Source: Candidatus Hydrogenedentota bacterium (GTDB taxonomy: Bacteria; Hydrogenedentota; Hydrogenedentia; Hydrogenedentales; SLHB01). From it: a stretch of 64,000 nucleotides of DNA. A model generated the notes under the pieces. The model was not told the origin of the DNA. It saw nothing but the letters and a program-made list of their open reading frames with translations, and did no database searches. The number at the start of each line of letters is the position of its first letter. The first letter of the stretch is position 1. Below, piece by piece: positions 3,191-61,268 of the stretch. Location of the stretch: contig DAOTMJ010000004.1 of the NCBI GenBank assembly GCA_035450225.1, positions 92,578 through 156,577 of the forward strand, in the 5' to 3' direction. The translations under genes and the position numbers were made by a program.

Positions 3191-5152
3191 ATGAAACACG
3201 TATTGTGTGCGCTGGCCATTCTGGCGGCGATTCTCGCTGCGCCATGCTCGGACGGGGCCGACTTGACGGCCCGGAAAGCCCCGAAAAACGGCCTGTGGAT
3301 CGAAACGCTTGACCTGTCCGTCATGAATCAGGGGTTCAAGCGGCCGCAGGCCTGCAAATCGCTCATGGGATTCCCCATCGCGCTGGGCGGCGTCCAGTAT
3401 CCGCACGGCATTGGCACGCACGCCGTCAGCGAGTTTTTGATCGATCTCAAGGGGGCGGCGGTGCGTTTCGACGCGATGGCCGGCGTGGACGACGAGACCC
3501 GCGGGCAGGGCTCGGTCGCGTTTGAAGTGTGGGTTGACGATCGCAAGGTCTCGGAAACCGGCCTCATGCGCGCGGGTGACAAGCCGAGGGAAATCTCCGT
3601 GGATCTCACGGGCGCTCGGTATCTTCTGCTCATGGTGTGCGACGGCGGCGACGGCACGAAACTCGATCATGCGGACTGGGCAGGGGCGTTGCTGACGCTG
3701 ATGCCCGGCGCGAAGGAAAAACCCGTCTCCATCGGCATCGGTTCGGAACCCCCGCCGCCCATCGCATCCAGCATGAATCCGGAACCGGCCATTCACGGGC
3801 CGCGCATCACCGGCGCGACGCCGGGGCGGCCGTTTCTGTTCCTGATTCCCGCGACGGGCGAAGGGCCGCTGACGTTCGAGGCGCGGGACCTTCCCGCCGG
3901 TCTCGTCCTCGACTCGACGACAGGCATCATCACGGGCGCGCTGAAACAAGCGGGAAGCACGGATGTCCTGTTGACGGCGTCCGGGCCAAAGGGAAAGGCC
4001 TCGCGAACGCTGACCATCGCCGGCGGCGAAAACATGCTGGCCTTGACCCCGCCCCTCGGCTGGAATTCATGGAACGTCTGGGGCGTGGTCGTGGACGACG
4101 AGAAAGTCCGCGCCGCCGCCGATGCGCTGGTATCGAGCGGACTCGCCGCGCACGGTTTCCAATACGTAAACATTGACGATTCCTGGGAAGGCGACCGCGA
4201 TGCAAAAGGTGTCATTCAGACCAACAAGCGTTTTCCGGACATGGCCGCCCTCGCGGACTATGTCCACGCGAAGGGTCTGAAACTCGGTATCTACTCGTCG
4301 CCGGGACCGAAAACCTGCGCCGGTTACACGGGCAGCTACCGGCATGAACAGCAGGATGCCGACACCTATGCGGCATGGGGGATTGACTATCTCAAGTACG
4401 ACTGGTGCAGCTACCGCGACATCGCGAAGAGCGCCGAACCGGAGGAACTCAAAAAGCCTTATCGCCTCATGCGCGAAGCCTTGAACCGCTGCGGCCGCGA
4501 CATCGTCTTCAGTATTTGCCAGTATGGAATGGGGGAGGTCTGGACATGGGGCGCGGAGGTAGGCGGCAATCTGTGGAGAACCACCTATGACATCGGGGAC
4601 ACGTGGGAAAGTGTGTCCGCCATCGGTTTCGCGCAAAGCGACAAAGCGCCCTATGCCGGGCCGGGCCATTGGAACGATCCCGACATGCTCGTCGTGGGCA
4701 AGGTGGGTTGGGGACCGAACGTGGCCCCGACCCGGCTCGCGCCCAACGCCCAAATCACCCACATCACGCTGTGGTGCATGTTGGCCGCGCCGCTGCTCAT
4801 CGGATGCGATCTGGTGCAACTAGACGATTTCACCCGGGCCCTGCTCACGAACGACGAAGTCCTCGACGTGGACCAGGATCCGCTTGGCCAGGCCGCCACG
4901 CGCCGCAGGCAGGAAGGCGCCTGCGAAGTCTGGGCGCGCCCCCTCTTCGACGGGACGACCGCCGTCGCCCTGTTCAATCGAGGCCCCATCAGGCGTCCCG
5001 TTACGGCTTCATGGGACGATGTCGGAGTCAAGGGCCGACAGCCCGTTCGCGATCTATGGCGGCAAAAAGACTGGCCGCCCGCCGAAGGTTCGATAACCGC
5101 CGAAGTCCCCGGACGCGGAGCGGTCCTGCTGAAAATCGGAAAGGTGCGCTGA
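3191..5152 (+). CDS. Alpha-galactosidase (GH27) with N-terminal NPCBM domain and Ig-like linker, secreted
   Basis: Track ORF 3146..5152. Start set at MKHVLCALAILAAILAAPCS (signal peptide) with AGGAG 8 nt upstream. NPCBM-like N-terminal region. GH27 hallmarks LGWNSWN, NIDDSWE, LKYDWC. C-terminal beta-sandwich. Confidence 0.85.
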   Translation: MKHVLCALAILAAILAAPCSDGADLTARKAPKNGLWIETLDLSVMNQGFKRPQACKSLMGFPIALGGVQYPHGIGTHAVSEFLIDLKGAAVRFDAMAGVDDETRGQGSVAFEVWVDDRKVSETGLMRAGDKPREISVDLTGARYLLLMVCDGGDGTKLDHADWAGALLTLMPGAKEKPVSIGIGSEPPPPIASSMNPEPAIHGPRITGATPGRPFLFLIPATGEGPLTFEARDLPAGLVLDSTTGIITGALKQAGSTDVLLTASGPKGKASRTLTIAGGENMLALTPPLGWNSWNVWGVVVDDEKVRAAADALVSSGLAAHGFQYVNIDDSWEGDRDAKGVIQTNKRFPDMAALADYVHAKGLKLGIYSSPGPKTCAGYTGSYRHEQQDADTYAAWGIDYLKYDWCSYRDIAKSAEPEELKKPYRLMREALNRCGRDIVFSICQYGMGEVWTWGAEVGGNLWRTTYDIGDTWESVSAIGFAQSDKAPYAGPGHWNDPDMLVVGKVGWGPNVAPTRLAPNAQITHITLWCMLAAPLLIGCDLVQLDDFTRALLTNDEVLDVDQDPLGQAATRRRQEGACEVWARPLFDGTTAVALFNRGPIRRPVTASWDDVGVKGRQPVRDLWRQKDWPPAEGSITAEVPGRGAVLLKIGKVR

Positions 5153-5197: not shown

Positions 5198-5968
5198 TCA
5201 TTGCTTGCGGGCAATCACCAGCATCTCGAAATTTTCCGGCGTCAGGGCGTTGTCCCGCGAAAAAGCGCCCAATTTCGCGCCGAAGATTTCAATGCGGGCG
5301 TAGCCGAGCGTCTTCAACAGCCAGGTGATCTCACACGGCACGTAGTAGCGTTCGTTGCAGGAAAGGGCCTTCTTGTTTCCGGAGTCGTCCTCGAATTCCA
5401 CGACATTGAAATCGCGAAAAGTCATCAGATCAAAGCGATTCTTCCCGCAGGCGCTCGTGTCCTCCTGTTTCGCTTCGGCATAGAACGCCTCCACATTATG
5501 GAACAAGGGGAACAGCCCGTTGAGCGTGGTGAACAGGAACACGCCATGGTCGTTCAGGGAACGTGTCACGTTCTTCAGTATCTCGAAATTCATCTCGTCC
5601 GTTTCCATCAACGAGAATCCGCCCTCGCACAGCATGATGGCCGCATCGAATTCCGCGTGAAATGGAAGCGCCCTCGCATCATGCCGCAGGAACTCGATGC
5701 TCAGACCTTGTGCCGTTGCCTTCTCCCGTGCTCTCGCCAATTGCGATTCGGACAAGTCTACCCCCGTTACGCGATAACCCCGCTTTGTCAACTCGATCGC
5801 GTGCCGCCCGGTGCCGCAGCCGACATCGAGGATCCTCAGCGACTTGTCAAACCCAAGTTCCTTCTCGATGAAATCGCATTCTCCCTGCGTGCCCTGCGTG
5901 AAGGGCTCCTTGTCGTACTTTTGTCCGTAGTTTTCAAACAGGCTCTCATACCATTGCTTTTCACTCAT
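5198..5968 (-). CDS. Class I SAM-dependent methyltransferase
   Basis: LDVGCGTGRHAIEL (motif I) and overall Methyltransf_11/25-like layout. The 5177..6205 + ORF is its shadow. Confidence 0.85.
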   Translation of the reverse strand: MSEKQWYESLFENYGQKYDKEPFTQGTQGECDFIEKELGFDKSLRILDVGCGTGRHAIELTKRGYRVTGVDLSESQLARAREKATAQGLSIEFLRHDARALPFHAEFDAAIMLCEGGFSLMETDEMNFEILKNVTRSLNDHGVFLFTTLNGLFPLFHNVEAFYAEAKQEDTSACGKNRFDLMTFRDFNVVEFEDDSGNKKALSCNERYYVPCEITWLLKTLGYARIEIFGAKLGAFSRDNALTPENFEMLVIARKQ

Positions 5969-9622: not shown

Positions 9623-10353
9623 TGGACGTTGTCCTTGTGTGAATGATCGGTGTCGATCAGTCCATCCTTGAAATGAACGGTACGCTTGGCATAGGCGGCC
9701 ATATCGGGTTCATGGGTCACCATGACGATGGTGATTCCCTGTTCCCGGTTGAAAGCCGTCAGCAAATCCATGATCTCGACACTGCGCGCGGAATCCAGAT
9801 TGCCGGTCGGTTCGTCCGCCAGTAGGACCAACGGTTGCGTGACGATCGCACGCGCGATGGCGACCCGTTGCTGCTGGCCGCCTGACAGTTCGCCCGGCGT
9901 GTGGTGTTCCCAGCCGCTCAATCCCACGTCGCACATGGCCTGTCGGGCGCGCGCATGCCGCGTATGGGCTGCTTCACCGCGGTAGATCAATGGCAACTCG
10001 ACATTCTCGAGCGCCGAAGTACGATTCAGGAGATTGAAGCCCTGGAACACGAAGCCGAGGCAATGACGGCGCAACAGCGCCCGCTGATTGCGCGTGAGTT
10101 GGCCGACTTCGATGCCCTGAAAGCGATACGTACCGTCCGTGGGCGTGTCCAAACAGCCTAGAATGTTCATGCAGGTGCTCTTGCCCGACCCGCTCGGACC
10201 CATCACCGCGACGAACTCGCCCGGATAGATCCGCAAGTCCACACCGCGCAACGCTTCCATGGTGGCGGTGCCGGTCCCATAGACCTTGGTCACCCCCACG
10301 AGTTCGATGAGGGGCGCGTCGGTTGTGCCATGGCCATTCTTGTCGCTCATCAT
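9619..10353 (-). CDS. ABC transporter ATP-binding protein (MacB/LolD-type)
   Basis: Walker [10 protein letters not shown], signature [14 protein letters not shown], Walker [13 protein letters not shown]. Start trimmed to MMSDKNG, which overlaps the upstream stop (ATGA). Confidence 0.9.
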
Positions 10354-11645
10354 TTCAACGTCGCCACTTCGGTCACCAGTTCCATGCCCGGTTCGAGTTC
10401 GCCAGCGACGATCTCCGTCACCTTCCCGTCGGTCATTCCCTTGGTAATCGCAATGGATACAAGTTGCCCATTGCGCACAGTCCACACGCACTGGTCCTTG
10501 TTCTTTGCTCTGGAGTCATCGCGCGGCGCCGCCTTTTCACGCGGCGGGTGTGGCAGGATTGCGCTCAGCAGACTGCCGCCGCCGGACTTCTTCGCCGTCT
10601 GTGTTTGAGGCGGCGAGAACCGCAACGCCGCATTCGGCGCCAGTAGCACATTCTCTCGTTTGTTTACTATCAACGAAGCCGTGGCCGTCATCCCCGGCCG
10701 CAGAGTCAGATCCGAATTGTCCACCTTCAATACCGTTTTGTACGTCACAACCCCATCGACCGTTTCCGAACCGAAACGCACTTGCGTAATCCGGGCCGGA
10801 AACACACGATCCGGGTAGGCATCCACGGTGAACGACGCCTCTTGGCCTTTCTTCACAAGTCCCACGTCGGCTTCATCGACATCCACCAGCAGTTGCATCT
10901 GTGCCAGATCCTCCGCCAGCGTAAAGAGCACGGGCGATTGGAACTGCGCGGCGACCGTCTGTCCCGGCTCGACCGAACGAGTCAGCACGACCCCGTTGAT
11001 GGGGGAATGAACAACGGCTTTCGCCAAGTCGGACTTGTTCGCGTCCAGAGTCGCTTGCGCTTGCGCCACGGCGGCTTTCGCGCTGGCTTCGTCGGCTTGC
11101 GCCCGCTCTTGAACGGCCTTCTGTGCATCGAAATCGTGTTGCGAAGGCATCTTGCCGCCGCTCTGTTCGCGGACCTCTTTCAGTCGGGCCATCTGGGCTT
11201 CTGTCTCTCGAACGGTCGCTTGCGCCTGAAGCAGTTTGGCGCGTGCGGCTTCGAGTGCGGCAGCGGACTGGAGCGATTGCGCCTCGAGTTTCGATGTGTC
11301 GAGCCGCGCCAAGACTTGGCCAACTTCGACCTCGTCGTTGTAATCGACATCTACGGACATGATCGTCCCCGATACTTCGATGCCGACCTCCACTTCCTTG
11401 ATCGGTTCCAGGGCGCCGGTTGCGCTTACCGTCACCACCAAGTCTCCCCGGGTTACGGGCTGCGTCTCATATTTCAAGGAACTCGATGCGGTCCTCGAGT
11501 GCCACGAGACGCCCGCAGCCAATGCCGCGGCTGCAATCCCGATTCCCAAGAAATATCGCAGCATGCGGGATCCGCGTGAACGGGACTTCCCCAGTCCAAG
11601 CATCTTGGCAACATTGGATTTCGGATCGGCACACGGATTCGTCAT
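10350..11645 (-). CDS. macA: Efflux periplasmic adaptor, HlyD/MacA family
   Basis: Signal/TM anchor, long coiled-coil (EAQ…AQA…), lipoyl and beta-barrel domains. Start set at MTNPCADP with AAGGAG 6 nt upstream. Confidence 0.85.
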   Translation of the reverse strand: MTNPCADPKSNVAKMLGLGKSRSRGSRMLRYFLGIGIAAAALAAGVSWHSRTASSSLKYETQPVTRGDLVVTVSATGALEPIKEVEVGIEVSGTIMSVDVDYNDEVEVGQVLARLDTSKLEAQSLQSAAALEAARAKLLQAQATVRETEAQMARLKEVREQSGGKMPSQHDFDAQKAVQERAQADEASAKAAVAQAQATLDANKSDLAKAVVHSPINGVVLTRSVEPGQTVAAQFQSPVLFTLAEDLAQMQLLVDVDEADVGLVKKGQEASFTVDAYPDRVFPARITQVRFGSETVDGVVTYKTVLKVDNSDLTLRPGMTATASLIVNKRENVLLAPNAALRFSPPQTQTAKKSGGGSLLSAILPHPPREKAAPRDDSRAKNKDQCVWTVRNGQLVSIAITKGMTDGKVTEIVAGELEPGMELVTEVATLK

Positions 11646-11655
11646 GGCATACTCC

Positions 11656-12339
11656 TTAATCATCGGCGTTATCGTTATTGACGGACGGCGCCGAGAACTC
11701 CATTTCGTACTTTTCCCGAATGGCCCGCACCCCGGCCAGGGAAAACCGCAAGATATGTTCTGCCAGCTGGTCCACGTTGCTTGCCGCGAGTCCAAAGACG
11801 ACGCGCGGCCCTTTGTCGCGCGGTCCCGGCGCTCCCATGAAACACTGGCCGACAATGCTCATCTCGCACCATGTCACATCGCGCTCCGGAACCTGAGGTC
11901 CCAGCAATTCGCGTAGGATTCCCAAGATCTGCTTCCTGCCATACGCCAGGCTCCGTTCCAGCAAGTCATCCAAGAGGCCCGTCGGCTCGAAAATCTCCCT
12001 CATGCGAATGTGGTGAAGATGGCCTAGACGCACCGGATCGAACATCCGGCTGAGGTGCGCATGGATAAACCCCTGGAGACGTTGCTCCGGTTCCGCCGTC
12101 TCCGGCACCCCTCCGCTCAAGGGATAAAAGGATTCAGCTTTTTCTTCCAGATGCTCGAAAACCGCACGATAGAGCGATTCCTTCGACTCGAAGTAATAAT
12201 TGATGGCCGCTACATTCGTGCCTGCCCGACGGCATATCTCCGCATGGGTGCCATCTCGGTAGCCCTTTTCGGAAAAGACCTTGCAGGCCGCCTCCAGAAT
12301 GCGATCTTTGGTTTCCTGCCCGCGTCTTTGATCGGTCAT
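11656..12339 (-). CDS. TetR/AcrR family transcriptional regulator (first gene of efflux operon)
   Basis: HTH region DRILEAACKVFSEKGYRDGTHAEICRRAGTNVAAINYYFESKESLY. Start set at MTDQ with GGAGGG upstream. Confidence 0.85.
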   Translation of the reverse strand: MTDQRRGQETKDRILEAACKVFSEKGYRDGTHAEICRRAGTNVAAINYYFESKESLYRAVFEHLEEKAESFYPLSGGVPETAEPEQRLQGFIHAHLSRMFDPVRLGHLHHIRMREIFEPTGLLDDLLERSLAYGRKQILGILRELLGPQVPERDVTWCEMSIVGQCFMGAPGPRDKGPRVVFGLAASNVDQLAEHILRFSLAGVRAIREKYEMEFSAPSVNNDNADD

Positions 12340-12368
12340 CTGCCAACCCTCCAAATCAAAATATGCAA

Positions 12369-13160: not shown

Positions 13161-13661
13161 TCAGCCGGCCGGTTGCGCGGGGAACCCGGACAATCGGGCG
13201 GGCCAATCCGCGGGCAACACCCCGTGATCGCGGATGACGATGCGGCGTTGTCCTTCCGCGGCGTGCGCAAACGTGAGGTCGAGACGGCGATCGGGAAGCC
13301 ATTCCTCCGCCCGTTCGGCCCACTCGACAAGGCTGATTCCGTCCGGATCGAAAAGATCCTCGTATCCAAGATCGGTCAGTTCCGCCGCCGCCGAAAGCCG
13401 GTACAGATCGACGTGATAAAGGCACGGCGCGCTTCCGTATTGATTGACGAGCGTGAACGTGGGACTGCTGACGTGTTCGGCGCGGCCGTAATGACGCGCC
13501 ACGCCCCGCACAAAACAGGTTTTGCCCGCGGCAAGCGGCCCGTGCAGCGCCACAACCGTACCGGCCGGAATCAGGCCCGCAAGGGCACAGCCCAACGATT
13601 CGGTCTCTTCCGGATTTCGGGTGACCAGGACACGTTCCAATCCTTCAGAAGGCATTTCCAA
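13161..13661 (-). CDS. tsaE: tRNA threonylcarbamoyladenosine biosynthesis protein TsaE
   Basis: Walker A-like LHGPLAAGKTCFVRGVA plus the conserved SPTFTLVNQY…HVDLYRL block of the YjeE/TsaE family. Confidence 0.8.
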   Translation of the reverse strand: MEMPSEGLERVLVTRNPEETESLGCALAGLIPAGTVVALHGPLAAGKTCFVRGVARHYGRAEHVSSPTFTLVNQYGSAPCLYHVDLYRLSAAAELTDLGYEDLFDPDGISLVEWAERAEEWLPDRRLDLTFAHAAEGQRRIVIRDHGVLPADWPARLSGFPAQPAG

Positions 13662-13743: not shown

Positions 13744-14760
13744 TCACTTGGCCGGCGCTTCAAGCGCCTGCATGCGCTCAATGGTTCGCGGTTGATCGGT
13801 TTTCAGTTCAAGCGAACGGGCATACGCGTTGCGCGCGCGGTCGTTCATGCCAAGTTGTGCGGCGACGTCTCCGATGAAATTGAACACGGTCTCGTCGTCC
13901 GGCGCGAGCCGCGCGGACCGTTCGGCGGCTTCCAGCGCGTCCTGCAGCCGCTGGGCGCGCAGCATGACTTTCGCATACGCCATGGCGTCTTCGGCGGTGT
14001 CGGGCGCAATGCGTCGGGCATCGAGAAGACGATCCACGGCCTCCTTGATACTGTCGGTGTATTCATCCGCATATTCGGGGGACGGCGGGCCAAGGGCTTC
14101 GAGATCGGCGTTGCCGTCCCGCACGCGCCCGGTTTGGATTTTCAGCGCCGCCATGGCCAAGCGGGCGCCCCAATGCGACGGTTCGCTTTCCAAGGCCTTT
14201 TCGAGCGCTTCTGCGGCCAAATCGGACAAGCCTTCCTTTCGGTATACGCGGCTCATTAAAAAATGGATGTCGCCATCCGGGGATAATTGCAGCGCGCGCC
14301 GCAGCGCGGCCAAGGCCTCAGGCGCCCGGAAATGTCCCGGCGCGGACAAATTGCGTCCGAGTTCTTTCCATGCGCAAGCATCGTCCGGTTTCAAATCCGT
14401 CAGCCTTCGCCACGTTTCCGAGGAAAGATCATATTCTCCGGCGGCGGAAAGCATTTCGGCGAATTCGCGCAACACCTGAGGATCCCTCGAAGCGCCGGCC
14501 CCCGCTTGTTCATAGCATCTGACAGCTTGTTTCAGGGAATCGTTCGCTTTGTCCGCCTGTTGCTGAAGCGCGGCGGGATCCTCTTGTCCCTGGGGGGCGG
14601 CCACGGCCGCCTTGTCCGCGCGATATTGCGCCCATGCGGACCGTGCGGCGGTGAAATCGTTTGCGGGGTGGCATGAAACACAAAGCAATAGGCCCGCAAC
14701 ACCCGTTTTCCCGACACAAAAAAGGCGGGACATCAAAACCGTACGGATTTTCTCCACCAT
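13744..14760 (-). CDS. Tetratricopeptide-repeat protein with signal peptide
   Basis: N-terminal hydrophobic signal and multiple TPR-like A/L/Y-rich repeats. Confidence 0.7.
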   Translation of the reverse strand: MVEKIRTVLMSRLFCVGKTGVAGLLLCVSCHPANDFTAARSAWAQYRADKAAVAAPQGQEDPAALQQQADKANDSLKQAVRCYEQAGAGASRDPQVLREFAEMLSAAGEYDLSSETWRRLTDLKPDDACAWKELGRNLSAPGHFRAPEALAALRRALQLSPDGDIHFLMSRVYRKEGLSDLAAEALEKALESEPSHWGARLAMAALKIQTGRVRDGNADLEALGPPSPEYADEYTDSIKEAVDRLLDARRIAPDTAEDAMAYAKVMLRAQRLQDALEAAERSARLAPDDETVFNFIGDVAAQLGMNDRARNAYARSLELKTDQPRTIERMQALEAPAK

Positions 14761-15740
14761 TATCCTTGGAGCATGACGCGGCGGATTATCTTCTGGCTTT
14801 CGACGGCATCAAGCGTACGCTGGGCCTTGCGAAGCTCCGCGATGTCTAATTTTTCTAGTTTTTTCCAAAAAATCGAGAGATTGCCCACCGCAATTTGGCA
14901 CGCATGGCATGGATCCATCCGGTGCGGGAGCATGTCGAGAATGGCATATCCTTTATAGCGCGCAATTTTGAGATAAAGCAGCGCTTCCATGATTTCCCAC
15001 ATGTTGACGCTGCCCGGTATCATCATGTCGTCGGTCAGGCGGTACGAATCGCTGAAATACATCTGAAACAGTTTGTTGGCCCGTGTCAGGAAGGCGATGG
15101 ATTCTGCGGGATTCTCTCCCGCCATCAGCGCATGGGAAAAATTCATGGCCACGCCGACATTCTTCATCGCGATTTCCTGGCAGAGGCTAAGCGACTTGCC
15201 CACCGAAGCGATGGTCAAATATTTGCGGGGTTCGCGCGGCTTGTAGGCGATCGCCACATTGATGTCCGGCGAGGCGTACTTGGCGATGGTTTTAATGGAC
15301 GAAATAACCGTGTTCCAATGGGTTGCATAGTCTACATGGAAGGGATAATCGAAACCATCCGTATAAAGCCGCAGCGTTACTTCGGTCGCACCCAGTTGCC
15401 GGGCGATGTCGGACGCTTTACGGCCTTCCTCGATGGCGATGTTTCGTGTCTTGGGATGTTGATGACCGAACGCGCTCAACGCAAACCGTTTGTCCTGCAT
15501 GAAATTGACCGACACCCCCGAACAGAGTAATCCATATTCCTTCAACACCCGTTTGAGTTCACGGACAGGAAAATCGGGCGTTACATCGGTCTGCGCAATC
15601 TCTACCGCCTTCAGGCCCTTGATTTTTGCGGCCATCGCAAGGCGATCCTGCACCCGGGGCATCTCGCGAAATCCTTCGGGCGTCGTCGGATCCACCCCGC
15701 TCGCAAAAATCCACAACCCCGCTGAAATCCGAAGGCTCAT
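14760..15740 (-). CDS. Sugar phosphate isomerase/epimerase (xylose isomerase-like TIM barrel)
   Basis: MSLRISAGLWIF… N-terminus and TIM-barrel pattern typical of the AP_endonuc_2 family. The track ORF begins with an upstream GTG at 15833, so the start is uncertain. Confidence 0.7.
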   Translation of the reverse strand: MSLRISAGLWIFASGVDPTTPEGFREMPRVQDRLAMAAKIKGLKAVEIAQTDVTPDFPVRELKRVLKEYGLLCSGVSVNFMQDKRFALSAFGHQHPKTRNIAIEEGRKASDIARQLGATEVTLRLYTDGFDYPFHVDYATHWNTVISSIKTIAKYASPDINVAIAYKPREPRKYLTIASVGKSLSLCQEIAMKNVGVAMNFSHALMAGENPAESIAFLTRANKLFQMYFSDSYRLTDDMMIPGSVNMWEIMEALLYLKIARYKGYAILDMLPHRMDPCHACQIAVGNLSIFWKKLEKLDIAELRKAQRTLDAVESQKIIRRVMLQG

Positions 15741-16142
15741 CCGGCTGTCCCGTGATGCTACGTGATCGGCGACCATGCCGGGATCGTCGCCTGCGGCTGA
15801 ACTATTTTGCGTCTTGGTATCCACTGGGTTCACTAATCCATGCGCCTACATGCGCGTTGCATGTCCAATCGTTCCATTGGACACGGTCAAGCGGAACAAC
15901 ATCCTCACTTTTCTCTGAACTTCCGCGTTGGGGTTATTTTAGATGATAATTACGCCATTGTCAATACTTTTCATGGAATTTATTGCCTTGATAAGAGAAT
16001 AAATTGATATTTGTGATAAATAATAAAACCATAAACTCCACTTTTGGTCATTAAACTGCCAATAATTATGGAAAAACATCAGCCTCAATAACGTATAAGT
16101 CTTTTTATTTCAATGTGTTGTATTGCGGTATTAAGAGGCAGG

Positions 16143-16197
16143 AAAAAAAAGGAGGCGAGTGCGGGCAGCGGGGGGACTGCCACGAAGCGCACTCGCC
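16143..16197 (-). terminator. Strong intrinsic terminator on the minus strand (10-bp GC stem with nested stem, then U8)
   Basis: Plus strand reads aaaaaaaa-gga-GGCGAGTGCG-ggcag-cgggggga-ctgcc-acgaag-CGCACTCGCC, so on the minus strand the hairpin is followed by TTTTTTTT. No minus-strand protein gene lies upstream of it. Confidence 0.55.
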
Positions 16198-16316
16198 GGT
16201 GGTGGGAACCAGTCATTGCTGACTGTGGCTGTGAGTACAAGCTGGGGGAAAGGCTTCGCTCACAGCTGTCTATGGAACACCGCATGTTCCAAAATCTATT
16301 CCCGATAAAATTTTTT

Positions 16317-16332
16317 TGGAACCGCCGTTGCC
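16317..16332 (+). promoter_or_regulatory. Sigma-54-like -24/-12 element TGGAAC-N5-TTGCC upstream of the HEAT-repeat gene
   Basis: GG and GC dinucleotides spaced exactly as in TGGCAC-N5-TTGCW. Lies 55 nt upstream of the start codon. No enhancer-binding-protein gene was seen nearby. Confidence 0.25.
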
Positions 16333-16389
16333 GTTTGACATTGGCGGAAACCTTTATCAAGATTATACCATGAAATCGGGGATTGTGTG

Positions 16390-17430
16390 ATGCGGTGGTG
16401 TCTGTACGGAATAATGCTGGTTCAGATTGTTACATCGGCGGAGGATGAAGCCGTGGCCCGGCGGACGGCGGATCGCGCGATGGAATTGATGCGCCGTGGT
16501 TCGGTGGACTGGGTCGTCTTTTCCGTTTCATCGGGCATGCCTTCGGTTCCGCGTCCGCAGACGGCTTCGCCCGTTCTTGAGGAAACCGCGCAGGCCGAGG
16601 ATCCGGAAACGCGTTTTCAAGCGTTGGAGGCGCTTTCGGAATCTGGAAATCCTGATTACCTGGATCGTTTTCTGGTTGCGCTGAACGATCCATCGCCGCC
16701 CATTCGCGAATTGGCGGCGGGGTATCTCGCGAAACAGGACGCGGGTCAAGTCTTTGCGCGGCTCATGGAATTGTTTGCGCGCGGGGGCGGCGAAGCATTG
16801 GCCCGGCTCGATCCGGCCATCCCTCTCTTGGGGGCAAGATTTGAGCCGCGATTCATGGAAGCGCTTGCGGATCCGGACGAGACGCCCGCGCGCAAGCGGA
16901 TCGCCGCCCATTGCCTGGGCCGGATGAACAGTGTCGCGGCGATACCGGCGCTGGCGGAATGCGCGTGGAATTCGGACGAGGCGACGGCCCTGGCCTGCAT
17001 ACAGGCTTTGCTGGCCGTTCGGGATCCGATAATCATCGCACGGCTGGGCGAATTGGCGGGGCATTCGCTTCCGAGCATCCGCAAGGCAGCCATTGAAGGG
17101 CTTGCCGATGCAGGCGGGCCGGAGGCGTTTGACGTGCTGGGACGGCTGGCCATGGCGCCTCCGGACGGCAACGAGGAAACAGCACGCGAGGCGGTGTTGG
17201 CGCTGGGCGCGATGAACACGGAAGCCGCCATTCCGCTCTTGATCGAAATCATGCGGACCAACGTGGCGGCACGGCGGACGGCCGTGCAGGTCCTGCGCCA
17301 ATTGACCGGCGACGATGCCGGCGATCAGCCCTCCGAGTGGCAGGCGTGGTACGAGCGGCGGATCAAGGCCCTGCAACAGCAGATCGAGCAGGAGCAAAAA
17401 TCACTTTACGATGTCGAATACATGAAATGA
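16390..17430 (+). CDS. HEAT-repeat (PBS-lyase-type) protein
   Basis: Repeated …AAxALGxxxxxxAIPxLxxLLxDxDxxVRxxAAxAL… units. The track start is GTG at 16387. The ATG at 16390 was chosen. Confidence 0.75.
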   Translation: MRWCLYGIMLVQIVTSAEDEAVARRTADRAMELMRRGSVDWVVFSVSSGMPSVPRPQTASPVLEETAQAEDPETRFQALEALSESGNPDYLDRFLVALNDPSPPIRELAAGYLAKQDAGQVFARLMELFARGGGEALARLDPAIPLLGARFEPRFMEALADPDETPARKRIAAHCLGRMNSVAAIPALAECAWNSDEATALACIQALLAVRDPIIIARLGELAGHSLPSIRKAAIEGLADAGGPEAFDVLGRLAMAPPDGNEETAREAVLALGAMNTEAAIPLLIEIMRTNVAARRTAVQVLRQLTGDDAGDQPSEWQAWYERRIKALQQQIEQEQKSLYDVEYMK

Positions 17431-36313: not shown

Positions 36314-37579
36314 ATGAACACGATTGGCTTTCTTGCCGTTCTTGCCGGCGCCTTTGCGGCGCCGAACGTGGTGCTGTTGTCCGTGGACACGTTGCGCGCG
36401 GATTACTTGGGTTGCTACGGGTATCCGCATCCCTCGTCGCCAGTCTTGGACGCCTTTGCAACAGAAGGGTTGCTGTTCGAGGACTGCGTGTGCGAGGTGC
36501 CGCTGACGCTTCCCTCGTTCGGCTGCATGTTTTCCGGCTTGTATCCCCGGACGACCGGCACAACCAAAAACGGCTTGCGAATGCCCGAAACGAAACCGCT
36601 TATCACCGAAGTATTCAAAAAGGCGGGCTATCAGACGTTTTGCGTTCAAAGCAATTGGCCCCTGAAAGGCCGCCTGTCGGGTCTCGATCGCGGTTTCGAC
36701 GTCTACAACGACGAGTTCGAGCAGAAACGCTGGGGATTCATGCTCGGCGAACGCAACGCCGAACAGGTCACCGCAGCCGGCCTGGAGATACTCGGCCAGC
36801 GCGATCCGGCCAAGCCCTTTTTCCTGTGGATCCACTATTCGGATCCGCACGCGCCCTATGAAATGCACAAGAAATTCAACGTGCTGGGCCAATCGCCCGG
36901 CAGTCTCGAACCGCGCGAGCGTGTACGCGCGAAGTATGCCTCGGAAGTGGCCTTTACCGATTACCACATCGGACGTTTCCTTGCCGCGCTGCCCGGCGAG
37001 AACACCTTCGTCATGTTTGTGGCGGATCACGGCGAGAGCCTATTCGAGCACAACTATCTTGGCCATGGACGGCGCATCTTTCAGACCAACCTGCACGTGC
37101 CGTTTATTTTGCGCGGCCCCGGCATCGCGCCGGGCCGGTCGAAATCGCCGGTCTGCGTGCTCGACGTCGCGCCGACGCTGCTGGGTATGGGAGGATTTTC
37201 GCCCCTGCCCGGCATGGAAGGCCGGAACGTGCTCCTTGATCCCCCCGGTCCCTCCACGGTTCGCCATGTCGAAACCTACGGCGGCGCGGTACCCCGGCTG
37301 CCGTTGCTAAGGGCGTTGTTGCGCAACCGTGGTCCCCAGAAACGCGGCATCATCCACGAAGGCTGGAAGTTGATTATCGGCGGCGGCGCCCATTTGTTCT
37401 ATCTGCCCGAAGACCCGAAAGAGTCAAGCAACCTGGCCCGCAAACACCCCGAACGTGTGGCCGCCCTTCGCAAAATGATCGATCAATGGGACAAGGCGCA
37501 TCCCCGCGGCAAAGCCTGCGAATCCAAACTCTCCGCCGAGGACGTGGAAGCCCTACGGGGCCTTGGCTATTTGTATTGA
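36314..37579 (+). CDS. Sulfatase-family (alkaline phosphatase superfamily) hydrolase/transferase, non-canonical active-site motif
   Basis: LLSVDTLRADYLGCYG and downstream metal-binding blocks of PF00884. The canonical C/S-x-P-x-R is absent (CEVPLTLPS), suggesting a Thr/Ser-nucleophile subtype. Confidence 0.7.
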   Translation: MNTIGFLAVLAGAFAAPNVVLLSVDTLRADYLGCYGYPHPSSPVLDAFATEGLLFEDCVCEVPLTLPSFGCMFSGLYPRTTGTTKNGLRMPETKPLITEVFKKAGYQTFCVQSNWPLKGRLSGLDRGFDVYNDEFEQKRWGFMLGERNAEQVTAAGLEILGQRDPAKPFFLWIHYSDPHAPYEMHKKFNVLGQSPGSLEPRERVRAKYASEVAFTDYHIGRFLAALPGENTFVMFVADHGESLFEHNYLGHGRRIFQTNLHVPFILRGPGIAPGRSKSPVCVLDVAPTLLGMGGFSPLPGMEGRNVLLDPPGPSTVRHVETYGGAVPRLPLLRALLRNRGPQKRGIIHEGWKLIIGGGAHLFYLPEDPKESSNLARKHPERVAALRKMIDQWDKAHPRGKACESKLSAEDVEALRGLGYLY

Positions 37580-38431
37580 CGCGGCGGACAAGTACGTCTC
37601 CGGATTCACCGCGACGCCTTCCCGGCGAACCTCGAAGTGGACATGCGGGCCCGTGGCCCGTCCCGTGCTGCCCACCTTCGCAATGCGGGTCGTTTCCGTA
37701 ACCCGGTCGCCTTTGCGCACGAGATTTTTCTGATTGTGCGCATAAAGCGTCTGCACGCCGTCCGCATGCTGCACGATGACCGTGTTGCCGTACCCGGCCT
37801 GCCAACCGCTGAAGACAACCCGGCCCGGTTCAGCCGGATGAATTGCCGTACCCGCCTGGGCCGTCAAATCAATGCCCGCGTGCCATTCGCGTGCGCCCGT
37901 GAACGGATCGGAGCGCATTCCGTAACCGGATGAAACCTGCAAAGGCCCGTCCAGAATCGCCTTTACGGATCGGATCGGCGCGGAGGCCGTCCGGCGCTCT
38001 ACCAGCGATTGGATCAACGCGGTCAATTCGTCGCTCGGCGGCGCTTGTACTTTCGCGGGTGCGGCCCGCACGGCCACCGGCAAAGGCGGCGCCGCATTCA
38101 GCGGCGACAGATCGAGTTTCTGGCCGATGGCTATGCGGTTTGCATCGGCAAGGCGATTGGCATGGGCCACTTTACGGACCGCCTCGCCTATGTCCTGTTG
38201 GGACGGATTCATGCCTTGTTGCCGCAATGCCCTGCTGCAAATGGCCGACAAGGTGTCGCCCGCCCTGACCGTGTATTCGCCAAGGGGGGGCTTGTTCGAG
38301 GAATCCGGCGCCTGCATGCGATCCAAAAGGTCTTGGAATGTCGTCGAGGAGGAACGCAGGGCCGTTGCGGGCGAAAACGCCGTTACCGGACGCCGGTAGT
38401 CCGTCCCGATGGCCGACACGTGTGCCGTCAT
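37553..38431 (-). CDS. LysM domain-containing M23 family metallopeptidase
   Basis: LysM region YTVRAGDTLSAIC…IAIGQKL. M23 motifs HAGIDL and GSTGRATGPHVHFEV. Start trimmed to MTAHV. Confidence 0.85.
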   Translation of the reverse strand: MTAHVSAIGTDYRRPVTAFSPATALRSSSTTFQDLLDRMQAPDSSNKPPLGEYTVRAGDTLSAICSRALRQQGMNPSQQDIGEAVRKVAHANRLADANRIAIGQKLDLSPLNAAPPLPVAVRAAPAKVQAPPSDELTALIQSLVERRTASAPIRSVKAILDGPLQVSSGYGMRSDPFTGAREWHAGIDLTAQAGTAIHPAEPGRVVFSGWQAGYGNTVIVQHADGVQTLYAHNQKNLVRKGDRVTETTRIAKVGSTGRATGPHVHFEVRREGVAVNPETYLSAASIQIAKAP

Positions 38432-38709
38432 TTGCCCATGGCCCTCCCGATGCAATTGCCCGGAAAGCGCAACCGGCGTGCCACTGGGAAAAGGCAACTC
38501 TAACACATTGAAATAAAAAGGCTTGTCTCTCTACCCGTATTCGCGATATCGCGACAAGGTAGGAAGAAACTGCCGCAACGCGGACGATATAGACTTTATG
38601 GACGTGGAAAGTTATTCGCCTTTCGGGAGAAGTCCACGGGATCCACAACGCCCACCTTGTCCACAGCGAAAGATACGCGCTCGACCGCCAATGGGCCGGT
38701 GCGAAAGGT

Positions 38710-38874
38710 TTATTCGGTGTCCGGCGCCGCAGTTGCCTTGTTGCGTGGCCAAAGCGCCACAACCGACAGGAATATCATCACGAATCCCCACAGTTCCTGA
38801 TACAGTTTTTCCGGCGTCTGAGCCGAATACGAAGGAACCGGACGCCCCGGCTTGGTCACCATACCAATATGCAT
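38710..38874 (-). CDS. Small single-TM protein (54 aa), not in the ORF track
   Basis: ATG preceded by GGAGGA at 7 nt. Translation MHIGMVTKPGRPVPSYSAQTPEKLYQELWGFVMIFLSVVALWPRNKATAAPDTE, with one TM helix. Sits between flhG and the M23 peptidase gene on the same strand. Confidence 0.35.
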   Translation of the reverse strand: MHIGMVTKPGRPVPSYSAQTPEKLYQELWGFVMIFLSVVALWPRNKATAAPDTE

Positions 38875-38972: not shown

Positions 38973-39833
38973 TCAGGCGTTGCTGGCGAGACCGAGGGTC
39001 TGGGCGAAACGGCGGAAGAAACCGCTGCGGGCGCGGTCGGCTTCGGCGCGTTGGCGGACCATCTTTCCAGCGAGGTCCTGAACGCATTTTGCCGCAGGCG
39101 ACGCCGGAAACGCGATGGTGAAGGGGGTGCTCTGCATGACGCTCTGGGTGACATGCGGATCGCGCAGGATATGGCCGAGGTACGACAACGTAAGGCCGAG
39201 GTATTGCCTTGCGACACGGGTTAGGTTCGTCATGACGGCGAGGGCCTGCTGTGGACTTGCGGCCATGTTGACGATAAGCCGGAACGAAGCATCCTCGCGG
39301 ATGCCGGCAATCGTTTTGATCGTGGCGTAGGCGTCCACGATGGCGGAAGGTTCCGGCGTTGTCACGAGCAGGATTTCGTCCGCGGCGGCGGCGAACCGCA
39401 CGGCGTTCTGGCCAATGCCCGCCATCGTGTCAATGATGACGAAATCGGCCATCTCCTGAAGATCATGGAGTCCGTCCAGCACGTTTTGCCGCGCGCGCGC
39501 GTTGAGATCGGCCAGTTTGGCGAGGCCGGAAGTGCCGGGGACTATCAGGATGTCCGCCGGGCCTTTCATAAGGATGTCGCGCATGGGTTTCTCGCCGTCA
39601 ATCACGTGCTGGAGGTTGTGGAACGAATTGAGGCCCATCAACACTTCGACGTTGGCAAGGCCGAGATCGGCGTCGAGCACGATGACCCGTTTGGCTTGCC
39701 GGGCGATGGCGATGGCGAGATTGACGCTCACCGTCGTCTTGCCAACGCCGCCCTTGCCGCTGGTCACGGCGAGTACGCGGGCCATGTTCTGGTGTTTTCG
39801 GACGAATTCACGCAGATTGTGCGCTTGATCCAC
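38973..39833 (-). CDS. flhG: Flagellar number/placement regulator FlhG (MinD/ParA-family ATPase)
   Basis: Deviant Walker A VTSGKGGVGKTT. Immediately downstream of flhF. Confidence 0.85.
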   Translation of the reverse strand: MDQAHNLREFVRKHQNMARVLAVTSGKGGVGKTTVSVNLAIAIARQAKRVIVLDADLGLANVEVLMGLNSFHNLQHVIDGEKPMRDILMKGPADILIVPGTSGLAKLADLNARARQNVLDGLHDLQEMADFVIIDTMAGIGQNAVRFAAAADEILLVTTPEPSAIVDAYATIKTIAGIREDASFRLIVNMAASPQQALAVMTNLTRVARQYLGLTLSYLGHILRDPHVTQSVMQSTPFTIAFPASPAAKCVQDLAGKMVRQRAEADRARSGFFRRFAQTLGLASNA

Positions 39834-41076
39834 GGCAGGAATCTCCTTCTTCGAGCAGCAGCCGCGCCACCTTGCCGGGCGTGGCGATCTCGATGTCGTC
39901 GGGCACGTTTTGTCCCGTGCTGAAATAACTCAGGGGCAGGCCGCTTTCGGCCGCCAAGTCGAACAGGGCGCCGAAGCGTCCCGTTTCGTCGAGCTTTGAA
40001 AAGAGCAGCGAGGAAGGCCGCAGGCAATTGAACCGCGCGGCGATGGCGCGCAGGTCGTCCGCGCAGGTTCCGGCGCTGAGCACGAGCATGACGTCGTCGG
40101 GCGGCGCGGCGTCGAATTCCGATTTCAACTCGCGGATCTGTTCCTCGTTGAACGGGCTGCTGCCGGCCGTGTCCACAAACACGAAATCATAGTCCGCGAA
40201 AGCTTCGAGCGCGATCAGGTATTCGCTGGCGTCGTTGGCGATGCGCATGGGCAATCCGGCAATGGTCGCGTACACGCGCAACTGTTCCGGCGCGGCGACG
40301 CGGTAGGTGTCGAGCGTGACGATGGCGACGCGCGCGCGGTCGCGGATGGCGAACAGTGCGGCGAGTTTCGCGAGGTTCGTCGTCTTTCCGACGCCTGTGG
40401 GGCCGATCAGCGCGACGACGCGCCGGGCCGCCCCCGCGCGCGCCAGGCCGTGTGTCACCAGCACGCGTTTTTGAATTTCCATGCGGAGCCGTTCGGTGAA
40501 GACGCGCGGATTGCGCAGGATCGATCGGTCGGCATTGCCCACGACCGCGTCCATCAGGGATGCCGCCAGCGTGCGTCCCATGCCGCTATCCACAAGCCGG
40601 CGGTAGTGCGGAATGAAATCGGACGGAAACTCCGTACAGGGTGTCTCGGCGACCAGCACCTGCAGCAGACGGCGCATCTCCTCGACTTCGCGCCGCAGAT
40701 CCGGCGGGGCTTGCTCCTTTTTGCCCGGCGGCCCGGCCGCGGTTTCCTGACGGGGCGTGGCGGCGGCGGCTCGTTGTTGCGCAAGCCGGCGGAAGAACGC
40801 GACGGTTTCGCGCATGGCCTCGTCGGAACCGGCGGCCGTTTGGTGCGCGGAGTACTTTTTTTCGGCCAGACTCTTCGGGCGTGCGAGGGGCTTGGCGGGC
40901 GGCGAGGCGGTCAGTTGAATCGCCTTGCGTCCGAACAGGCCGAACAGACCGCCCTCCCTTACTTCGGCCGTGTTCAGGACGATCGCGTCCTCGCCGAGTT
41001 GGCGGACCATCTGCCGGTAGGCGTCGTCGAAAGTGCCGGCGGTAAACGTGTGCAGTTTGCGTTCCATGTTATGCAC
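39808..41076 (-). CDS. flhF: Flagellar biosynthesis GTPase FlhF (SRP-type)
   Basis: SRP-GTPase motifs LIGPTGVGKTT and DTAGSSPFN, with a basic N-terminal domain. Confidence 0.85.
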   Translation of the reverse strand: MHNMERKLHTFTAGTFDDAYRQMVRQLGEDAIVLNTAEVREGGLFGLFGRKAIQLTASPPAKPLARPKSLAEKKYSAHQTAAGSDEAMRETVAFFRRLAQQRAAAATPRQETAAGPPGKKEQAPPDLRREVEEMRRLLQVLVAETPCTEFPSDFIPHYRRLVDSGMGRTLAASLMDAVVGNADRSILRNPRVFTERLRMEIQKRVLVTHGLARAGAARRVVALIGPTGVGKTTNLAKLAALFAIRDRARVAIVTLDTYRVAAPEQLRVYATIAGLPMRIANDASEYLIALEAFADYDFVFVDTAGSSPFNEEQIRELKSEFDAAPPDDVMLVLSAGTCADDLRAIAARFNCLRPSSLLFSKLDETGRFGALFDLAAESGLPLSYFSTGQNVPDDIEIATPGKVARLLLEEGDSCRGSSAQSA

Positions 41077-60670: not shown

Positions 60671-60743
60671 CCGGCATGTTATCGAGGAGCGCCGATTCGC
60701 CATGCGCGGGAAATGGAGATATAAAAACAGGGGGGACAAATAA

Positions 60744-61268
60744 ATGGCACCCGTTTATTTTGTGGACGGATACAACGTGATCCATCACTCGACGCGGTTG
60801 CGCCCGCTGGCAATCGAAAGTTTCGAGCAGGCCCGCGACGCCCTCATTGAACACGTGGGGCGGTTTTGCGTGGCCACCGGCCACACGGTCAAGATCATCT
60901 TCGACGGGTGCGGCCGCCGCGCCGAACCGGCGCCGCCCCTAAAAGGCATCAAAGGGCTTGAGGTATTGTATTCCCCGGGCCATCAAAGCGCCGACGCGTT
61001 GATCGAACGGACCGTCTACCAAACGCCGAACCGGCGCAACGTTATCGTGGTCAGCAGCGACCGGGGCATTCGCGACCTGTGTCGCGGCCTTGGCGCGATG
61101 GTCATGGATGCGGACATCTTTCTCGACACCATCGGCGAGTCCGAGTCCGAAACCCGCGCCGCAATGGTTCATCTTCAGCGGGCCGACACGCTGAACCGCA
61201 TCGAAAACCGCCTCGGCGAAGCCAACGTCTCCCTTCTCGAACAACTGAAGCGGAAGCTCAAAACATAG
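60744..61268 (+). CDS. NYN (PIN-like) domain protein, YacP/Rae1 family
   Basis: YFVDGYNVIH, KIIFDG, and VVSSDRGIRD blocks. Confidence 0.7.
   Translation: MAPVYFVDGYNVIHHSTRLRPLAIESFEQARDALIEHVGRFCVATGHTVKIIFDGCGRRAEPAPPLKGIKGLEVLYSPGHQSADALIERTVYQTPNRRNVIVVSSDRGIRDLCRGLGAMVMDADIFLDTIGESESETRAAMVHLQRADTLNRIENRLGEANVSLLEQLKRKLKT

Follow-up and report, generated by a model that had tools for sequence, protein, structure and literature searches.

What, if anything, is transcribed from the gap between two divergent genes in a genome of the Hydrogenedentota? Members of this phylum occur widely in sediments, groundwater, wastewater, and the ocean and are known almost only from metagenome bins; to our knowledge, nothing is known about their gene regulation. 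The stretch analyzed here, which we call the window, comprises 64,000 nucleotides (nt) from Candidatus Hydrogenedentota bacterium (assembly GCA_035450225.1, contig DAOTMJ010000004.1). In it, a HEAT-repeat gene is transcribed from 16387 on the plus strand, and a gene for a xylose-isomerase-like TIM-barrel protein (14760-15833; PF01261, E = 1.6e-17; the TIM gene) lies on the minus strand. An earlier note, written from the letters of the DNA, had assigned to the region between them an independent non-coding transcript on the minus strand, divergent from the HEAT gene. Conservation throughout the phylum, compensatory base changes, and G-U pairs and a U-tract that are specific to one strand now lend this proposal strong support, and a conserved, structured RNA gene is almost certainly present at the locus. 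Our favored reading, to which we assign a probability of roughly 0.6, is that of a small RNA (sRNA) driven by a promoter of the extracytoplasmic function (ECF) type and acting in trans through C-rich seeds.

The element recurs across the phylum. Among 80 Hydrogenedentota genome loci fetched via the TIM protein (66-92% amino-acid identity), 57 contain, some hundreds of nucleotides ahead of the TIM gene, an 80-140-nt block that matches approximately 16281-16141 in blastn comparisons. The block is 75-95% identical at the nucleotide level in these 57 loci, the adjoining TIM protein 67-92% identical in amino acids; the RNA block is more conserved than the adjacent protein-coding gene. Scanning metagenome contigs with a 26-nt core of the RNA alone, which removes the bias of fetching loci through the TIM neighbor, yielded 49 further loci. 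In an nhmmer profile search of all loci, from Hydrogenedentota genomes and metagenomes, 107 copies were recovered, never more than one per locus, and a covariance model (R1, run with filters off) found its sole real match in the window at 16275-16141, with 133.8 bits. We considered a repeat or mobile element and rejected it on the grounds of this single copy per locus and in the window.

A comparison with Rfam, which had been suggested along with the original proposal, matched no family. With the gathering score as threshold, Rfam 15 gave no match in the whole window or in 15 homologous loci; at E <= 10 over 15800-16500, the lone match was spurious, to a mammalian long non-coding RNA model on the plus strand, scoring 22.5 bits against a gathering score of 70. 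ARAGORN reported neither a tRNA nor a tmRNA, and a full-text literature search for small RNAs in Hydrogenedentes gave nothing relevant. The element represents a well-supported new sRNA family of the Hydrogenedentota that lies outside Rfam, with clear precedents for its design and likely regulation.

The conserved unit is organized into three hairpins, termed P2, P3, and P4, with a single-stranded linker between the latter two and a terminal U-tract (Table 1). A covariance model of this architecture was built from 86 non-redundant copies, which score 82-138 bits each upon realignment. In the model-based alignment of these copies, 95.6% of the cells in paired columns hold standard pairs, a figure that drops to 26-42% once the 3' partners are shifted by 1-3 columns. 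Both sides change with pairing kept in 23 of the 33 base pairs, and all five observed measures lie beyond every one of 500 column shuffles; these pair counts lean towards the model, as the alignment was fitted to it. In a plain MAFFT alignment, the P2 apex and inner P4 already show GC/AU/UA swaps. Covariation is heavy in P2 and in the inner stem of P4, where such swaps affect five of the six inner pairs, and P3 and the outer stem of P4 are almost invariant; rare variants of P3 (CAGCC..GGCUG and CAGUCC..AGACUG) preserve pairing.

Folding energies agree with this picture. The 222-nt minus-strand stretch is more stable than its shuffles (z = -5.4, compared with -2.8 for the plus strand), and the 126-nt core folds at -52.6 kcal/mol (z = -7.1), with a minimum free energy (MFE) structure identical to the consensus structure. 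The several stable hairpins described in the earlier note therefore hold up in that folding beats shuffles and in that P2, P3, and P4 are conserved in relatives; conservation does not extend to the hairpins 5' of ~16268, CCGCC...GGCGG at ~16347-16322 among them, not even in the nearest relative.

Which strand is the sense strand? G-U pairs are frequent in the alignment, and a U-G pair closes the P4 loop, at the top of the inner stem, in 80 of 89 rows. Since such pairs would be A-C mismatches on the other strand, and since a U-run follows P4 on the minus strand only, the minus strand is the sense strand. The strong terminator seen on first reading was confirmed: P4, with the arms GGCGAGTGCG...CGCACTCGCC, its nested GGCAG/CUGCC stem and T8 at 16150-16143, has the make-up of an intrinsic (Rho-independent) terminator, being a GC-rich hairpin directly before U8 on the transcribed strand, and reaches -27.4 kcal/mol when folded alone. 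A simple terminator scan with a loop limit of 8 nt left P4 unlisted because its loop is longer than 8 nt; the hairpin is established by folding and conservation.

Two loci of one subclade, L101 (1864-1997, minus strand) and L125 (9-142, plus strand), keep the whole RNA but have CCUCCUAUGUCCG after P4 in place of a U-tract. Termination may be inefficient or Rho-dependent in these two.

The element might also encode a small protein. The region had been described as free of open reading frames (ORFs) longer than 15 amino acids (aa), which does not hold: a 91-aa ORF with a TTG start (16085-16360, minus strand) and an 86-aa ORF with an ATG start (16113-16373, plus strand) both span the element. That either of these mechanically present frames is a gene is nonetheless extremely improbable. 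Neither has a match in Pfam or is conserved as a reading frame, both start codons fall in unconserved sequence, and the minus-strand ORF runs through the terminator and the U-tract. Substitutions in the stems are compensatory rather than concentrated at third codon positions. The P2 arms and the internal loop of P4 differ in length by 1-4 nt among homologs, with insertions and deletions of 1, 2, and 4 nt, which excludes a conserved reading frame. At the level of sequence, the locus thus combines the attributes of an sRNA gene: a promoter-like motif, a terminator, a separate promoter for the next gene, and no conserved frame.

Table 1. Coordinates of the sRNA, its parts, and the surrounding promoters in the window.
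Feature	Position	Strand	Remarks
sRNA, short (core) form, ~120-126 nt	16143..16268	-	P2, P3, linker, P4, U-tract; 5' end predicted
P2 hairpin, GCUGUGAG...CUCACAGC plus upper stem	16228..16266	-	all 11 modeled pairs show both-sided changes that keep the pair
P2 apical loop CUUUCCCCCA, C-rich seed 1	16252-16243	-	loop CCCCC invariant; unpaired probability 0.99 (86 homologs)
P3 hairpin, CAGUCA-GCAA-UGACUG	16210..16225	-	nearly invariant; 99.2% of cells paired
Linker GUUCCCACCACC, single-stranded, C-rich seed 2	16198..16209	-	invariant or >90% conserved in 86 sequences; mean unpaired probability 0.83
P4 intrinsic-terminator hairpin	16154..16197	-	10-bp outer stem, internal loop, inner stem GGCAG/CUGCC
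P4 apical loop UCCCCCCG, C-rich seed 3	16176-16169	-	loop CCCCC invariant; unpaired probability 0.99
U8 tract of terminator	16143..16150	-	read from sequence; U-run after P4 in nearly all homologs
Optional 5' extension of long isoform	16269..16355	-	non-conserved CCGCC..GGCGG hairpin and ECF-like promoter DNA
-10-like GTT of ECF-type promoter	16276..16278	-	GGAATA-N18-GTT pattern match at 16302-16276
-35-like GGGAATA of putative ECF-sigma-type promoter	16297..16303	-	>90% conserved in alignment A1
Sigma-70-like ATCACA-18-TGgTATAAT, possible second promoter	16362..16391	-	scan 10/12 matches plus TG; ~210-nt isoform, start site ~16355
Putative -35 TTGACA of HEAT gene (TTGACA-N17-CAAGAT)	16335..16340	+	back-to-back with sRNA promoter; spacing read from sequence
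Sigma-70 promoter of TIM gene, TTGACA-17-TAAAAT	15936..15964	-	consensus scan 11/12 matches; inside AT-rich island
AT-rich island	15940..16140		27-30% GC; fast-evolving spacer from sRNA terminator to TIM gene; includes TIM promoter

Where does the RNA begin? Upstream of P2, conservation is limited to two short boxes, GGAAT(A) and, 18-19 nt farther on, GTT. GGAAT is fixed at -37 to -33 relative to the first base of P2, and in 56 of 60 copies a gap of 8-10 nt separates GTT from the point where pairing in P2 begins. The complete arrangement of GGAAT, spacer, and GTT is present in 60 of the 86 non-redundant copies (N18 in 42, N19 in 17, N17 in one), and a few more have GGAAA; the spacers share their fixed length and are unrelated in sequence, and runs of A or T are often present 10-25 nt ahead of GGAAT. 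The pattern is largely confined to the RNA: of the 72 instances of GGAATA-N16-18-YGTT within 0.99 Mb of Hydrogenedentota loci, 67 are at the sRNA. The published consensus for sigmaH, sigmaE, and sigmaR consists of a -35 box gGGAAta and a -10 box t/cGTT in the arrangement GGAAT-N18-19-GTT, with single promoters given as GGAATA-N17-GTT (PMC10012870). Boxes and spacing of the sRNA, gGGAATA-N17/18-(t/c)GTT, are the same as in these ECF promoters (PMC10012870) and fit what defines the sigmaH/sigmaR/sigmaE type, namely GGAA(T/C) and (c/t)GTT at 18-19 nt, the start position being a prediction. Since the housekeeping promoters of the same loci read TTGACA-N17-TAnAAT, the promoter of the sRNA is of a different class. 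We infer that transcription would start near 16268 from an ECF-type promoter, giving a primary RNA of ~120-126 nt.

The earlier note had placed the start at TGgTATAAT, an extended -10 box on the minus strand, from which a single RNA of ~210 nt would run to the terminator. The box indeed lies at 16370-16362, with a weak -35 element, ATCACA, at an 18-nt spacing. On its own it is weak evidence for a promoter, because promoter-like matches are no commoner in the 2.5-kb region than in shuffles of it (2 versus 1.5 +/- 1.2). With such a start, GGAATA...GTT would be part of the RNA, for example as a GGGAAU:GUUCCC helix closing a multi-branch fold. MFE folds of many homologs do pair GGGAAU with GUUCCC, L025 has AGGA/UCCU at these positions, the extended -10 box is a good one that has been kept in the close relatives L111 and L106 despite their diverged surroundings, and a marine clade has sigma-70 promoters equally far upstream of P2. 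Yet apart from the two short boxes, the 5' 90 nt (the extension in Table 1) are without conservation in sequence or structure, and a spacer of fixed length and random sequence looks like a promoter rather than a helix. TGgTATAAT is absent from L002 and most other loci, which have no sigma-70 promoter there, and its retention in close relatives could equally be due to overlap with the -10 region of the HEAT promoter. Neither GGGAAU:GUUCCC nor GGAAUA:UGUUYC has support from covariation. An RNA made solely in the ~210-nt form is hence unlikely, and the length originally proposed is replaced by a conserved unit starting at ~16268. With the ECF-type promoter as the main one, TGgTATAAT, ~95 nt upstream of it, may add a longer isoform, such that a long and a short form would both be made in this genome.

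Both helices in which the boxes might take part were tried in their own right and discarded. The GGGAAU:GUUCCC closing helix is paired in 83.9% of cells compared with 83.8% in shuffles, of which 171 of 500 do as well, and it contains uncompensated breaks; covariation in the GGAAUA:UGUUYC hairpin is no better than in shuffles, and here, too, variants leave broken pairs uncompensated.

In many loci, the putative -35 element of the HEAT gene can be recognized on the sRNA strand as a conserved TGTCAA that precedes GGAAT by 30-45 nt. Within 16335-16367 on the plus strand, the block CAAGATTATACCA, the reverse complement of the TGgTATAAT region, has been preserved letter for letter in L111 and L106. 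Judged by their positions, the divergent HEAT and TGgTATAAT promoters would overlap.

Could the RNA instead be a cis-regulatory leader of the TIM gene, a riboswitch or attenuator with the terminator as its expression platform? The linkage is close: the RNA precedes TIM on the same strand in 57 of the 80 loci fetched through the protein, and TIM follows on the same strand in 35 of the 41 loci fetched by the RNA core that extend at least 700 nt downstream. Among the loci fetched by the RNA core alone, the HEAT gene is often found divergent upstream. A promoter of the TIM gene's own separates the two, however. In nearly all loci, the stretch separating the sRNA terminator from the TIM gene contains a strong sigma-70 motif, cTATTGAC(A/T)-N17-TAnAAT with 9-12 of 12 consensus matches. 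Loci without the sRNA have it as well, equally far from the TIM gene; because this conserved promoter intervenes, the RNA is not a leader of TIM. Moreover, 200-550 nt of unconserved spacer lie between RNA and gene, no part of the element is better conserved than the terminator, with no sign of an alternative pairing, pspA and pspC take the place of TIM downstream in one subclade, and the RNA is missing from 13 TIM loci whose upstream sequence is amply covered. A leader function is thus very unlikely, and on sequence grounds the sRNA is an independent unit in a conserved neighborhood. The intervening motif also documents canonical sigma-70 promoters, TTGACA-N17-TAnAAT, for the Hydrogenedentota.

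The AT-rich stretch beyond the terminator, which had been noted along with the candidate RNA, contains the same promoter. Its low GC content was correctly read (27-30% in 100-nt windows within 15950-16149), and the background is 60.2% over the whole window instead of the ~64% assumed. Compared with the equivalent spacer of L002, a locus with 92% identity, similarity is limited to the promoter block. From locus to locus, the GC content of the spacer varies between 0.29 and 0.62, which makes its AT-richness a local, lineage-specific trait. The island is a spacer that holds the TIM gene's sigma-70 promoter and lies outside the RNA.

Whether or not the sRNA is present, the conserved sigma-70 promoter of the TIM gene is followed by a long 5' untranslated region (5'UTR) of ~100-190 nt, which, given its conserved length, may contain a cis-regulatory element of its own. 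In L083 and L076, the distance between the sRNA terminator and the TIM gene is ~1.3 kb rather than 200-550 nt, indicating that something has been inserted. L010 has no sRNA and yet carries GGAATA-N16-TGTT (3871-3896, plus strand), on the downstream side of the TIM sigma-70 promoter and ~105 nt ahead of the TIM match; this could be a chance occurrence or a remnant.

What would such an RNA do? A UUCCC(C/A)C motif occurs in it three times, each time exposed: as UUUCCCCCA in the P2 loop, as GGUUCCCACC in the linker, and as GUyCCCCCG in the terminator loop. No variation is seen in the CCCCC and UUCCCACC columns, and all three sites are predicted to be unpaired, with the probabilities listed in Table 1. 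The linker is intact even in a clade whose 5' GGAAUA motif has decayed.

The nearest likeness is to LhrC of Listeria monocytogenes, in which UCCC sites in loop A, in a single-stranded stretch, and in the terminator loop all bind the Shine-Dalgarno (SD) region of targets, and which is induced by cell-envelope stress (PMC4132741). Here, too, redundant UCCC-containing sites (UUCCCCC, UUCCCAC, UyCCCCC) are distributed over a hairpin loop, a linker, and the terminator loop, in an RNA of similar size (~100-120 nt for LhrC). There is no similarity in sequence or in Rfam, however. LhrC belongs to the Firmicutes, is multi-copy, and is controlled by the LisRK two-component system, whereas the RNA described here is single-copy in the window, has the additional invariant hairpin P3, carries UUCCCCC in place of CUCCC...UUUU, and is preceded by an ECF-like promoter.

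The 6C family is defined by two hairpin loops, each with a run of at least six cytosines. The Hydrogenedentota RNA has 5 Cs in the P2 loop and 5-6 Cs in the P4 loop, together with an additional single-stranded seed. It shares with 6C (RF01066, Actinobacteria) the C-rich apical loops on stable hairpins and the setting of a high-GC organism; it differs in architecture and phylum, and RF01066 gave no match even at E <= 10. The C-rich loops of 6C bind G-rich ribosome-binding sites (RBSs) (PMC6486639). Similarly, in the UCCC-motif RNAs of Staphylococcus, C-rich sequences pair with G-rich RBSs (PMC2790875). RsaE/RoxS and other such sRNAs of Firmicutes (PMC2790875) resemble our element in their repeated, unpaired UCCC motifs directed at SD sequences, and differ from it in structure and regulators, with no homology.

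With respect to regulation, the element resembles a further group of RNAs. MicA, RybB, and MicL of Enterobacteria are small, terminator-ended, sigmaE-dependent RNAs with highly conserved promoters that form the repressing arm of the envelope-stress regulon. Their promoters read GGAACTT...TCNAA, and they are Hfq-dependent and use seeds at the 5' end rather than C-rich loops. The likeness to our RNA lies in small size, a terminator end, and a conserved ECF-type promoter, and does not extend to sequence.

Because its layout matches that of LhrC and its loops match those of 6C and the UCCC-motif RNAs, we propose the following model. The sRNA would be transcribed from its GGAATA-N17/18-GTT ECF-type promoter and, as suggested by the sigmaH/sigmaR/sigmaE-type sequence and spacing of this promoter, be induced together with a stress regulon. 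One or more of its three redundant C-rich seeds would then anneal to the G-rich regions where ribosomes bind target mRNAs; the sites expected at the RBS are unpaired GGGGGAA or GGUGGGAAC-like sequences. Pairing would block translation, and the sRNA would act as a trans-acting translational repressor.

Several observations weigh against this model. Overall, the TIM 5'UTR is no more complementary to the sRNA than chance predicts (mean z ~0), and the window contains a single clean G-rich RBS, GGGGGGA, ahead of a yacP-like gene at 60744. As the target search was confined to the 64 kb and neighboring genes, including an inspection of the HEAT start region, where start-codon calls are unreliable, the absence of a target is weak evidence. 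Approximately 60 nt, comprising P3, the linker, and the outer stem of P4, are near-invariant, which is more than a short seed needs. On the side of regulation, the ECF assignment leans on a consensus from Actinobacteria (PMC10012870), a distant phylum. A tblastn search with E. coli RpoE as query detected no ECF sigma gene in the window or the locus flanks, which is a weak negative. Finally, ~19 of the 86 copies, those of the marine clade, have no GGAAT; in its place, sigma-70-type promoters (TGnTATAGT or TTGACA-N17-TATTGT) are found 85-100 nt ahead of P2, so that regulation of the sRNA would not be uniform across the phylum.

The excess of conservation over what a seed needs leaves room for a protein partner, the main rival to a base-pairing mechanism. 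The RNA could be a sponge, decoy, or scaffold whose UUCCC sites and P3-linker-P4 region bind a C-rich-RNA-binding protein or the ribosome. Sponges of the CsrB/RsmZ type repeat the same short motif in their loops, as does our RNA, and the ~60 contiguous nucleotides are essentially invariant phylum-wide. The lack of an mRNA target points in the same direction, if weakly, owing to the limits of the search. On the other hand, the locus has no linked gene for a candidate partner protein, and the closest structural analogs, LhrC, RsaE, and 6C, are proven base-pairing RNAs. We regard a protein-binding function as improbable, and base-pairing in trans as the better account of the three seeds.

Individual sites of complementarity deserve mention. 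In one clade (L054, L093, L061, L057, L063, L060, L055, and L115), the linker GGUUCCCACCACC is strongly complementary to the TIM 5'UTR (-18 to -23 kcal/mol, z of -2.4 to -4.6) at a position ~80-93 nt ahead of the aligned start, and the other clades have nothing comparable. This may be a target site peculiar to the lineage, or a chance similarity passed on by descent. In the window, the yacP-like gene mentioned above, encoding a YacP-like NYN-domain protein (60744-61268, plus strand), has the RBS CAGGGGGGACAAAUAAAUG (60720-60746), which is complementary to the UCCCCCC loops and makes this gene a candidate target. UUCCCC is also complementary to GGGGAA in the helix-45 loop of 16S rRNA, which we take to be a probable coincidence.

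What would the significance of such an RNA be? We tentatively suggest, as a possibility that we consider somewhat doubtful, that it represents the non-coding arm of an ECF-sigma stress regulon common to most Hydrogenedentota, with three interchangeable UUCCC seeds silencing mRNAs that have G-rich RBSs. If so, it would be the first riboregulator defined for the uncultured phylum and an independent invention of the LhrC/6C design, joined to ECF control in the style of MicA and RybB. Another independent case of three redundant C-rich seeds, one of them in the terminator loop, would support the view that such a layout is a general solution for targeting G-rich RBSs where Hfq-type chaperones may be lacking. 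The alignment provides a ready-made, Rfam-type family for annotating Hydrogenedentota genomes, and the sRNA could serve as a stress-regulon marker that is readable directly in metatranscriptomes.

The subclade in which pspA and pspC stand downstream of the RNA comprises L120 (4364-5877, minus strand), L085, L089, L101, L109, L124, and L125, and encodes PspA (PspA_IM30, 3.6e-43), a 140-aa membrane protein, and a PspC-domain protein. Its pspA genes are preceded by a sigma-54-like TGGCAT-N5-TTGC (5950-5964, minus strand, in L120). This neighborhood fits a theme of envelope or membrane stress, a circumstantial agreement.

Elsewhere in the window, a second GGAATA-N18-GTT lies at 38769-38795 (plus strand), where 0.69 would be expected by chance, with no plausible gene downstream on that strand. 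Beyond the TIM gene, the minus strand carries an ordinary context of a TPR gene (13744-14760), tsaE (13161-13661), a TetR/CecR-type regulator (11656-12354), and a gene for an HlyD-family membrane-fusion protein (10350-11855). A cluster for flagellar export and placement, also on the minus strand, occupies 38973-43147 and consists of flhA (FHIPEP, 5e-270), flhF (an SRP54-type GTPase), and a MinD/ParA-like flhG; downstream of it is a gene for an M23 peptidase with a LysM domain (37553-38506, minus strand).

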